Below, one piece after another: positions 17,054 to 18,603 of a stretch of 64,000 nucleotides of DNA. The notes under the pieces are model-generated. The model made no database searches, had not been told where the DNA came from, and saw only the letters and a list, made by a program, of their open reading frames with translations. Each line of letters begins with the position of its first letter. Position 1 is the first letter of the stretch. The position numbers and the translations under genes were made by a program. The stretch is from Escherichia coli (GTDB taxonomy: Bacteria; Pseudomonadota; Gammaproteobacteria; Enterobacterales; Enterobacteriaceae): assembly GCF_044324785.1 (NCBI RefSeq), contig NZ_CP172127.1; one strand, written 5' to 3'.

Positions 17054-17301
17054 AAAAGGTTCCTTGAAGTATGTCCCACGCTGTGGACGGTACTTACATT
17101 AAGGCACAACAGGACAAAATGGTCAATTCTTCGTTATGTAAAAAAGCGTCAGTGGATACATATTTTAATGTTATGGAAGTTAATTTAATTATTTACAATG
17201 ATGATGTAATAATGATGAATTAACATGATAAACGTAATAATTCATTAATCAGGGTTATTTTGTTTGATATATATCAATTGGAACTTTCATATGACACTTA
17301 G

Positions 17302-18496
17302 GGAAGGTGCGAACAAGTTCCTGATATGAGATCATCATATTCATCCGGAGCGCATCCCAGAGGGACATCATGAGCCATCAACTCACCTTCGCCGATAGTG
17401 AATTCAGCACTAAGCGCCGTCAGACCCGAAAAGAGATTTTCCTCTCCCGCATGGAGCAGATTCTGCCATGGCAGAATATGACCGCTGTCATCGAGCCGTT
17501 TTATCCCAAGGCGGGCAATGGCCGACGGCCCTATCCGCTGGAGACCATGCTGCGTATTCACTGCATGCAGCATTGGTACAACCTGAGCGACGGTGCCATG
17601 GAAGATGCCCTGTACGAAATCGCCTCCATGCGCCTGTTTGCCCGATTATCCCTGGATAGCGCCCTGCCGGATCGCACCACCATCATGAATTTCCGCCACC
17701 TGCTCGAGCAGCATCAACTGGCCCGTCAATTGTTCAAGACCATCAATCGCTGGCTGGCCGAAGCAGGCGTCATGATGACCCAAGGCACTTTGGTGGATGC
17801 CACCATCATTGAGGCACCCAGCTCTACCAAGAACAAAGAGCAGCAACGCGATCCGGAGATGCATCAGACCAAGAAAGGCAATCAGTGGCACTTTGGCATG
17901 AAGGCCCACATTGGTGTCGATGCCAAGAGTGGCCTGACCCACAGCCTAGTCACCACCGCGGCCAACGAGCATGACCTCAATCAGCTGGGTAATCTGCTTC
18001 ATGGTGAGGAGCAATTTGTCTCAGCCGATGCCGGCTACCAAGGAGCGCCACAGCGCGAGGAGCTGGCCGAGGTGGATGTGGACTGGCTGATCGCCGAGCG
18101 TCCCGGCAAGGTAAAAACCTTGAAGCAGCATCCGCGCAAGAACAAAACGGCCATCAACATCGAATACATGAAAGCCAGCATCCGTGCCAGGGTGGAGCAC
18201 CCGTTTCGCATCATCAAGCGGCAGTTCGGCTTCGTGAAAGCCAGATACAAGGGGCTGCTGAAAAACGATAACCAACTGGCGATGTTATTCACCCTGGCCA
18301 ACCTGTTTCGGGTGGACCAAATGATACGTCAGGGGAGAGATCTCAGTAAAAACCGGAAATAACGCCAGAAATGGTGGAAAAAATAGCCTAAATAGGCTGA
18401 TTCGATGTGTTTGCGGGAAAAAAATCGGCCCAGATCCGCGAAATTTTAATCAGCGAGTCTGCTTGGGAAGAAATGACCTGCTTATTCGCACCTTCC
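17302..18496. mobile_element. IS5 insertion sequence, 1195 bp, flanked by 4-bp target duplication TTAG (17298-17301 and 18497-18500)
   Basis: Terminal inverted repeats GGAAGGTGCGAACAAG and CTTATTCGCACCTTCC; length; transposase ORF. Confidence 0.9.
17370..18362 (+). CDS. insH: IS5 transposase InsH
   Basis: Translation begins [12 protein letters not shown]..., matching IS5 transposase as I recall it. Confidence 0.9.
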
Positions 18497-18603
18497 TTAG
18501 AATCAATGCTCTCTATAGTGATGAATAATCATCATTCGAAGTCAGGTGGGATGCCTGTCTGAATACACCTCCTTCAGGATGTGGGGGATTCTGCTGAGCA
18601 TCT

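Follow-up and report, generated by a model that had tools for sequence, protein, structure and literature searches.

An ISKpn26-type insertion splits the -10 hexamer of the FNR-dependent pdeF promoter in an Escherichia coli strain, at a target recurrently used by IS5-family elements

The DNA analysed here is a stretch of 64,000 nucleotides from Escherichia coli (contig NZ_CP172127.1, assembly GCF_044324785.1), called the window below, in which a complete insertion sequence (IS) lies between yfgG and the divergent gene pdeF (yfgF), coding for a phosphodiesterase of cyclic di-GMP (c-di-GMP). The element belongs to the ISKpn26 type of the IS5 family, and no second copy of it is present in the window. 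The pdeF gene itself is intact, and its ATG at 18604 is found 107 bp past the end of the IS at 18496, the right copy of the duplicated TTAG target included, in agreement with the distance given in an earlier note on this DNA. The features of the locus are collected in Table 1. The position of the IS inside the pdeF promoter suggests that the activation of pdeF by FNR is probably lost or strongly reduced, i.e. that the insertion acts as a regulatory knock-down.

The expression of yfgF is known to be activated by FNR and to be highest under anaerobic conditions, and its promoter was described with an FNR box TTGAT--ATCAA at -41.5 and a -10 hexamer TAGAAT (PMC3718329). These motifs are present in the empty sites of K-12 and of a closely matching assembly (L007), where TTGATATATATCAA is followed by 21 bp and then by TAGAAT, a spacing compatible with a class II promoter. 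In the window, the published -10 hexamer is cut by the IS between TAG and AAT, and the TTAG target overlaps it; the native TAGAAT corresponds to positions 17299-17301 joined to 18501-18503. The distance of the FNR box, together with the -35 region that it occupies, to the -10 hexamer and the start site has grown by 1199 bp. A TAGAAT sequence is rebuilt by the target duplication on the right side of the IS, but the FNR box is now located 1220 bp upstream of this surviving hexamer and the class II spacing is lost, the hexamer that has come to stand beside the FNR box being TAGGGA. The earlier note considered that the IS separates pdeF from most of its upstream regulatory DNA; this is correct but understated, since the -10 element of the core promoter is itself split.

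A consensus scan of the empty site highlighted a single sigma-70-like match on the + strand, ATGACA-18-TATAGT (L007, 3887-3916; 10/12 positions), which overlaps the FNR promoter and whose predicted start follows the FNR-dependent one by some 15 bp. This match could be a second, FNR-independent promoter of pdeF, and it is also split by the IS. In the window, the same scan did not detect any + strand promoter match between the IS and pdeF, nor any outward promoter in the right end of the IS, where no usable -35 could be recognized by eye. Among 5419 E. coli genomes, 5220 have a 253-bp promoter region with an identity of 99% or more, suggesting that it is under constraint, and the loss of this region without effect is unlikely.

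Table 1. Coordinates of the features at the yfgG-pdeF locus of the window.
Feature	Position	Strand	Remarks
yfgG, 63 aa, divergent neighbour	16862..17053	-	open reading frame (ORF) list; offset from L007 (Pfam DUF2633); 244 bp upstream intact
FNR box TTGATATATATCAA, perfect TTGAT-N4-ATCAA	17264..17277	+	centre 17270.5; from the sequence and PMC3718329
ATGACA, -35-like half of ATGACA-18-TATAGT	17291..17296	+	cut off from its -10
TTAG target-site duplication, left copy	17298..17301		natively -14 to -11 of the FNR promoter
Complete insertion sequence, ISKpn26-type, IS5 family, 1195 bp	17302..18496	+	transposase directed towards pdeF
Left inverted repeat GGAAGGTGCGAACAAG	17302..17317	+	
Transposase promoter PIS, as defined for IS5	17307..17343	+	-35 GTGCGA 17307-17312, 17-bp spacer, -10 GATCAT 17330-17335, start A 17343
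Transposase ORF, 330 aa	17370..18362	+	ORF list and NCBIfam NF033581
Right inverted repeat	18481..18496	-	reads CTTATTCGCACCTTCC on the + strand; the repeat itself is GGAAGGTGCGAATAAG
TTAG target-site duplication, right copy	18497..18500		
-10 hexamer TAGAAT, rebuilt by the duplication	18498..18503	+	preceded by IS DNA, no longer by the FNR box
Native start site of pdeF (inferred)	~18511	+	FNR centre + 41.5, empty-site coordinates
TATAGT, -10-like half of ATGACA-18-TATAGT	18514..18519	+	now without -35
pdeF (yfgF), intact, 747 aa, MASE1-(GGDEF)-EAL c-di-GMP phosphodiesterase	18604..20847	+	ORF

When the IS and one TTAG are removed, the window matches a contig of the European Nucleotide Archive (ENA; L012) over 10,142 bp, and two NCBI assemblies (L007 and L009) over 8,176 bp, with an identity of 100.000%; in all of them TTAG occurs once, within ...CATATGACACTTAGAATCAATGC.... 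The comparison with the reference K-12 MG1655 revealed a yfgG-pdeF spacer of 351 bp with one TTAG and without any IS, and the earlier note was right that K-12 has no IS5 here. These comparisons show a clean and recent insertion. It also looks private to this strain: the exact junctions of the window had no match in two large collections, one of genome contigs and the other of metagenome contigs; among 5426 complete RefSeq genomes of E. coli, ISKpn26 was not found at this TTAG in the orientation of the window (0/5426), and the best chromosomal match to the flanks of the window reached 99.1%. Four top matches (H1-H4) were examined as possible carriers of the same insertion and were rejected as joining artefacts, their ISKpn26 being located elsewhere, between yfgI and yfgH or in yfgH.

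The features of the element are those of the IS5 family: a length of about 1.2 kb, 16-bp terminal inverted repeats beginning with GGAAGGTGCGAA (GGAAGGTGCGAACAAG and GGAAGGTGCGAATAAG, which agree at 15/16 positions), a duplicated 4-bp YTAR target and a transposase matching the NCBIfam model NF033581 'IS5 family transposase' (E = 6e-110; 367 bits for a cut-off of 140). Over its 1195 bp, the IS is 100% identical to copies present at many other loci and in many other genomes of E. coli, to which RefSeq gives the name 'IS5-like element ISKpn26 family transposase'. Its identity to IS5 (the copy of NMBU-W13E19 and IS5A of K-12) is 91.1-91.2%, with 8 gap openings, and varies by region from 33/34 in the first 34 bp to 94% in the ORF and 77% in the last 177 bp. 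In the ISfinder convention, isoforms share more than about 95% of DNA identity. IS5 sensu stricto was rejected on the overall identity and on the divergence of the ends, which is highest in the last 177 bp. By sequence identity, the element is an ISKpn26-type member of the IS5 family and not IS5 itself, an assignment made with the copies named by RefSeq. The earlier note had described a complete 1195-bp IS5; the length, the repeats, the TTAG duplication and the coordinates are retained, and the name has to be corrected.

Compared with the 1196-bp copies of ISKpn26 (EPSSH018), the IS of the window shows 4 substitutions and a deletion of one nucleotide, in which one T is missing (CAGTGGGAG replaced by CAGGGGAG, window positions 18330-18345, IS position ~1032). 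This deletion modifies the C-terminus of the transposase, which passes from 326 to 330 residues, the terminal ...RQWERSQ being replaced by 11 other residues. An identical copy in SMS-3-5 is flagged as a 'frameshifted' pseudogene by the Prokaryotic Genome Annotation Pipeline (PGAP). Since identical 1195-bp copies occupy many different loci in many strains, this variant should evidently still be mobile, either via its own transposase or via one supplied in trans. The event in the window is in itself an ordinary promoter-disrupting insertion by a known and currently active IS, ISKpn26.

To look for other insertions at this position, the 5426 complete genomes were searched with the arrangement of the window and with the IS reversed, and the junctions were checked base by base. 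IS5 or ISKpn26 was found at the identical TTAG in 9 genomes, in both orientations. IS5 is inserted in the forward orientation, as in the window, in NMBU-W13E19, where both TTAG copies are intact, and in TUM9812, where an IS1 abuts base 2 of IS5 and where yfgG and the FNR box are deleted. The reverse orientation was observed for IS5 in LCP22S3_I2 (left flank intact), in CP53 and NT1F31 (two different adjacent deletions, to new TTAG and TTAA sites), in ETEC1720 (left flank and pdeF intact), with which ETEC1722 was grouped from the search hit alone, and in LR536431 (pdeF additionally cut by IS3). The ninth genome, E5, carries a 1196-bp ISKpn26, also reversed, with a deletion reaching into yfgH. 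The flanks of LCP22S3_I2, CP53 and NT1F31 are identical, which groups these strains in one lineage. Because the element type, the orientation, the IS sequence (by up to 11 nt) and the flanks differ between the others, the sequences point to at least five independent natural events at this TTAG.

The FNR box and yfgG were later deleted in TUM9812, CP53, NT1F31 and E5. In these four strains the deletions extend leftward from the IS end, yfgG and part or all of yfgH having disappeared, and the new left junctions are TTAG in CP53, TTAA in NT1F31 and CTAA in E5; these are YTAR sequences, which fits with adjacent deletions mediated by IS5.

One laboratory case is on record. In K-12 MG1655 evolved in the presence of gallium, a mutation 'IS5 (+) +4 bp' was reported at 2,629,042, yfgF/yfgG -104/-245, with a frequency of 0.5 (Graves et al. 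2019, PMC6928379). The bases 2,629,042-2,629,045 of MG1655 are CTAA, the reverse complement of the present TTAG. If the breseq convention holds, the transposase of this IS5 probably reads away from pdeF. This case is similar to the window by its identical target and its 4-bp duplication (CTAA/TTAG), and differs from it by the canonical IS5, the laboratory origin, the frequency of 0.5 and the probably reverse orientation; the promoter is not discussed in the paper. In the gallium experiment the transposase is apparently directed towards yfgG, and selection may have acted on yfgG and not on pdeF.

The same case bears on the idea that the insertion in the window is neutral for pdeF, either because another, unaffected promoter or condition drives the gene, or because the real target is yfgG. 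Such a neutral insertion would be compatible with the intact state of pdeF and with the selection by a metal, gallium, in the sole laboratory case, yfgG being annotated in K-12 as a nickel/cobalt stress response protein. We consider it highly improbable: E. coli genomes differ little in the promoter region, the scan of the 107 bp remaining before pdeF gave no promoter-like sequence, and yfgG, which retains 244 bp of its own upstream DNA in the window, is deleted in several of the strains carrying an insertion.

In total, three insertions are forward, that of the window included, against at least three independent reverse ones, to which the laboratory case, probably reverse, is added. An orientation bias as the sign of a selected activation was rejected on these about equal counts.

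Other insertions were observed around this promoter. Strain 102651 has an IS1 in this promoter (L003, NZ_CP189662 3977-4746), and the 9-bp duplication of the IS1, GAATCAATG, spans the last part of the -10 hexamer and the region of the start site; this strain also harbours ISKpn26 between yfgI and yfgH. Four genomes (L001, L002, L003 and H4) carry ISKpn26 in the yfgI-yfgH spacer or in the 5' part of yfgH, and the yfgI-pdeF stretch, with its AT-rich spacers, gathers IS5-family elements overall. Furthermore, the coding region of pdeF is broken by ISEc68 in 21AR0133 (L005, NZ_CM132251 2270-3465) and by the IS3 of LR536431 (L017, NZ_LR536431 3457-4716). From these sequences, pdeF seems to have been lost repeatedly among natural isolates.

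The yfgG-pdeF spacer contains seven YTAR sites, six of them TTAA and only one TTAG/CTAA, which is the insertion site. The AT-rich character of this spacer, noticed at first reading, is confirmed by the 150 bp on the left of the site, which have a GC content of 20-24% and a low nearest-neighbour stability, two proxies for superhelical stress-induced duplex destabilisation (SIDD), and IS5 hot spots have been tied to easily melted DNA (PMC5493358). Independent insertions have occurred at one and the same base pair, as in a hot spot. We infer that this TTAG is an intrinsic hot spot for the IS5 family, as the lone CTAA edging a tract of 20-24% GC. The literature searches on pdeF (yfgF) and IS5 led to the gallium study alone, with one row of a table, and the recognition that the -10 element of the FNR-dependent pdeF promoter is hit repeatedly by the IS5 family seems to be new.

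These data lead us to prefer a loss of FNR control. Activation of the class II type would require FNR at about -41.5 in contact with RNA polymerase, and due to this requirement the native anaerobic activation of pdeF should no longer be workable after the split. The end of the IS would not provide a good -35, and whatever transcription of pdeF remains would reach the gene from the IS by read-through. The expected result of the knock-down is an increase of c-di-GMP at low oxygen. The event itself would be explained by target preference combined with a loss of control over pdeF that was tolerated or favoured, rather than by selection for an activation of the IS5 type, because the same TTAG was reused in both orientations by IS5 and by ISKpn26, often with subsequent deletions. 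The about equal orientations, the deletion of the FNR box in four strains and the broken pdeF in one of them all fit a tolerated or favoured loss better than an orientation-specific gain. A deregulation of pdeF, as put forward in the earlier note, is a reasonable expectation; the default expectation should nevertheless be the loss of the native FNR activation, and not activation.

Several points weigh against this interpretation. The direction and the size of the effect on pdeF in this strain are deduced from the DNA. In the later paper of the YfgF group, the promoter motifs only 'suggest' a class II promoter (PMC3718329). In the window, pdeF is intact and identical to widespread alleles, with no sign of decay. 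The excess of disruptions in the region is modest, about twofold (the 253-bp promoter region is non-intact in 34 genomes, against 15 for the AT-rich yfgH-yfgG spacer), and the enrichment is specific to the site and not regional. Finally, in this orientation the spacing between the FNR box and the transposase promoter of the IS is class-I-like, and an FNR-dependent read-through might persist.

This last point is the basis of an alternative in which pdeF is rewired. In IS5, the transposase promoter PIS consists of a -35 GTGCGA at positions 6-11, a -10 GATCAT at positions 29-34 and a start at A42 (PMC11894529, legend of Figure 7). IS positions 1-34 of the window element, nearly identical to those of IS5 as described above, together with the A at position 42, conserve the -35, the spacer length, the -10 and the start of PIS, i.e. 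the core of a promoter of the Pfsn type, known from fucAO. The centre of the FNR box is found at -72.5 from the PIS start A (17343), and a class I activator binds at -61.5 or -71.5 in the case of FNR (PMC6343905) and at -61.5, -71.5, -82.5 or -92.5 in that of Crp (PMC11894529). FNR bound at -72.5 could recruit RNA polymerase to the silent PIS, and the transcript would cross the IS and enter pdeF. In this orientation only, pdeF would remain anaerobically induced, with a leader of about 1.26 kb, and the transposase would become regulated by oxygen. We hold this alternative to be a tentative one, with less chance of being correct than not.

Support for rewiring comes from fucAO (Zhou et al. 2025, PMC11894529), the only analogy of the earlier note that is mechanistically close. 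At fucAO, a flanking Crp site at -61.5 combined with PIS gives a strong promoter whose transcript crosses IS5, and a terminator placed after PIS abolishes fucAO expression (PMC11894529). As in the window, an IS5-family element is inserted at CTAA in a divergent and easily melted spacer, and a site of the CRP/FNR family is present in the flank at a class-I-like distance. The fucAO mechanism requires a transposase co-directional with the target gene, which is also the arrangement in the window. The observed -72.5 is a single base away from -71.5, a class I position, and on the + strand of the IS the scan revealed no strong terminator and only a weak terminator-like hairpin with a stem of 6 pairs (17995-18013). 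The two loci differ in that FNR at -72.5 is one helical turn further away than Crp at -61.5, and in that PfucAO is intact whereas the native pdeF promoter is destroyed. In one orientation, the insertion thus reproduces in sequence the layout of the fucAO fusion promoter, FNR replacing Crp, an arrangement which seems to be new.

Against rewiring, the FNR site misses -71.5 by 1 bp, and natural class I FNR promoters are rare, FNR being biased to class II (PMC3688515); yfgF is not mentioned in the main text of this genome-scale FNR study (PMC3688515). The IS is only 91% identical to IS5, and the read-through known for IS5 may not hold for this element. At the same TTAG the opposite orientation, in which the fusion is impossible, is at least as frequent, and TUM9812, with a forward IS5, has no FNR box, so that there is no sign of a selection keeping this arrangement. 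It is doubtful, in our analysis, that the pdeF promoter is rewired and not broken, which would make it the first FNR-controlled IS fusion promoter and the second natural case of the fucAO mechanism. If this were true, the consequences would be an oxygen-regulated transposase and a transposase-pdeF co-transcript.

The other analogies of the earlier note, bgl and flhDC, do not apply in the same way, since IS5 is located there upstream of intact promoters. The glpFK, bglGFB and flhDC cases have in common with the window a recurrent and targeted insertion of IS5 in AT-rich, destabilised regulatory DNA (PMC5493358), but in these systems IS5 stands upstream of intact promoters and acts via de-repression or via its 3' IB element, whereas in the window the IS lies inside the -10 hexamer and the region equivalent to IB is 77% conserved.

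A constitutive activation of pdeF, independent of FNR and active in aerobic conditions too, could by comparison with these systems result from a hybrid promoter, from an IB-like bend or IHF element, or from the interruption of silencing by H-NS; in the hybrid version, the right end of the IS would be combined with the rebuilt TAGAAT or with TATAGT. The -10 hexamer is indeed restored by the target duplication, the orientation is the one required at glpFK and fucAO, de-repression or a change of DNA conformation underlies the activation of bgl, flhDC and glpFK by IS5 (PMC11894529), and the very AT-rich spacer would suit the H-NS variant. We nevertheless find constitutive activation very unlikely. 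No -35-like hexamer is found 16-18 bp from TAGAAT or TATAGT, the best being ATGACC with a spacer of 19 bp, and the consensus scan was empty. The last 177 bp, which hold the IB region in IS5, are among the least conserved of the element (77% identity), the target promoter is intact in the known cases of activation and split here, and the reverse insertions and later deletions at the same TTAG are opposed to an orientation-specific gain of function.

In Klebsiella pneumoniae, ISKpn26 insertions in mgrB and upstream of rmpA and wcaJ are reported to abolish or reduce expression by landing in a gene or its control region, as would probably be the case in the window. The window differs from these cases by the E. 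coli host, by the target, the promoter of a c-di-GMP gene, and by the 1195-bp variant with an altered transposase C-terminus.

Concerning the neighbouring genes, the exact PdeF protein was found in 514 blocks of public assemblies, with the Pfam domains MASE1 and EAL, and all matching records carry the pdeF annotation; yfgG is likewise named in K-12 and in further records. A 50-aa ORF situated before the FNR box (17071-17223, + strand) is annotated by PGAP in many genomes as hypothetical protein WP_000017552.1; it has no Pfam match, is unannotated in K-12 and may be spurious. The first 15.3 kb of the window or so (1-15300) correspond to a prophage ending just before yfgI, with internal virion and injection-type proteins, a tailspike (10477-13233) and a lysis cassette that includes an endolysin and an Rz-like spanin and extends to 15260. 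The neighbour of yfgI is guaA in K-12 and in numerous strains, and the prophage is common to some relatives (L008, L010 and L012). No tRNA gene was found between positions 1 and 20000 of the window.

In E. coli, PdeF is the c-di-GMP phosphodiesterase induced under anaerobic conditions, and its uncoupling from FNR should modify c-di-GMP-dependent traits such as motility, surface structures and the handling of oxidative stress, and this at low oxygen in particular. IS5-family elements have landed recurrently in the core promoter of pdeF, in nature and in the laboratory, a recurrence apparently undescribed beyond the row of the gallium table. The site offers a natural test bed for the extension to FNR of the fusion mechanism known for Crp and IS5, and for the respective parts of DNA structure and selection in the targeting of these elements.

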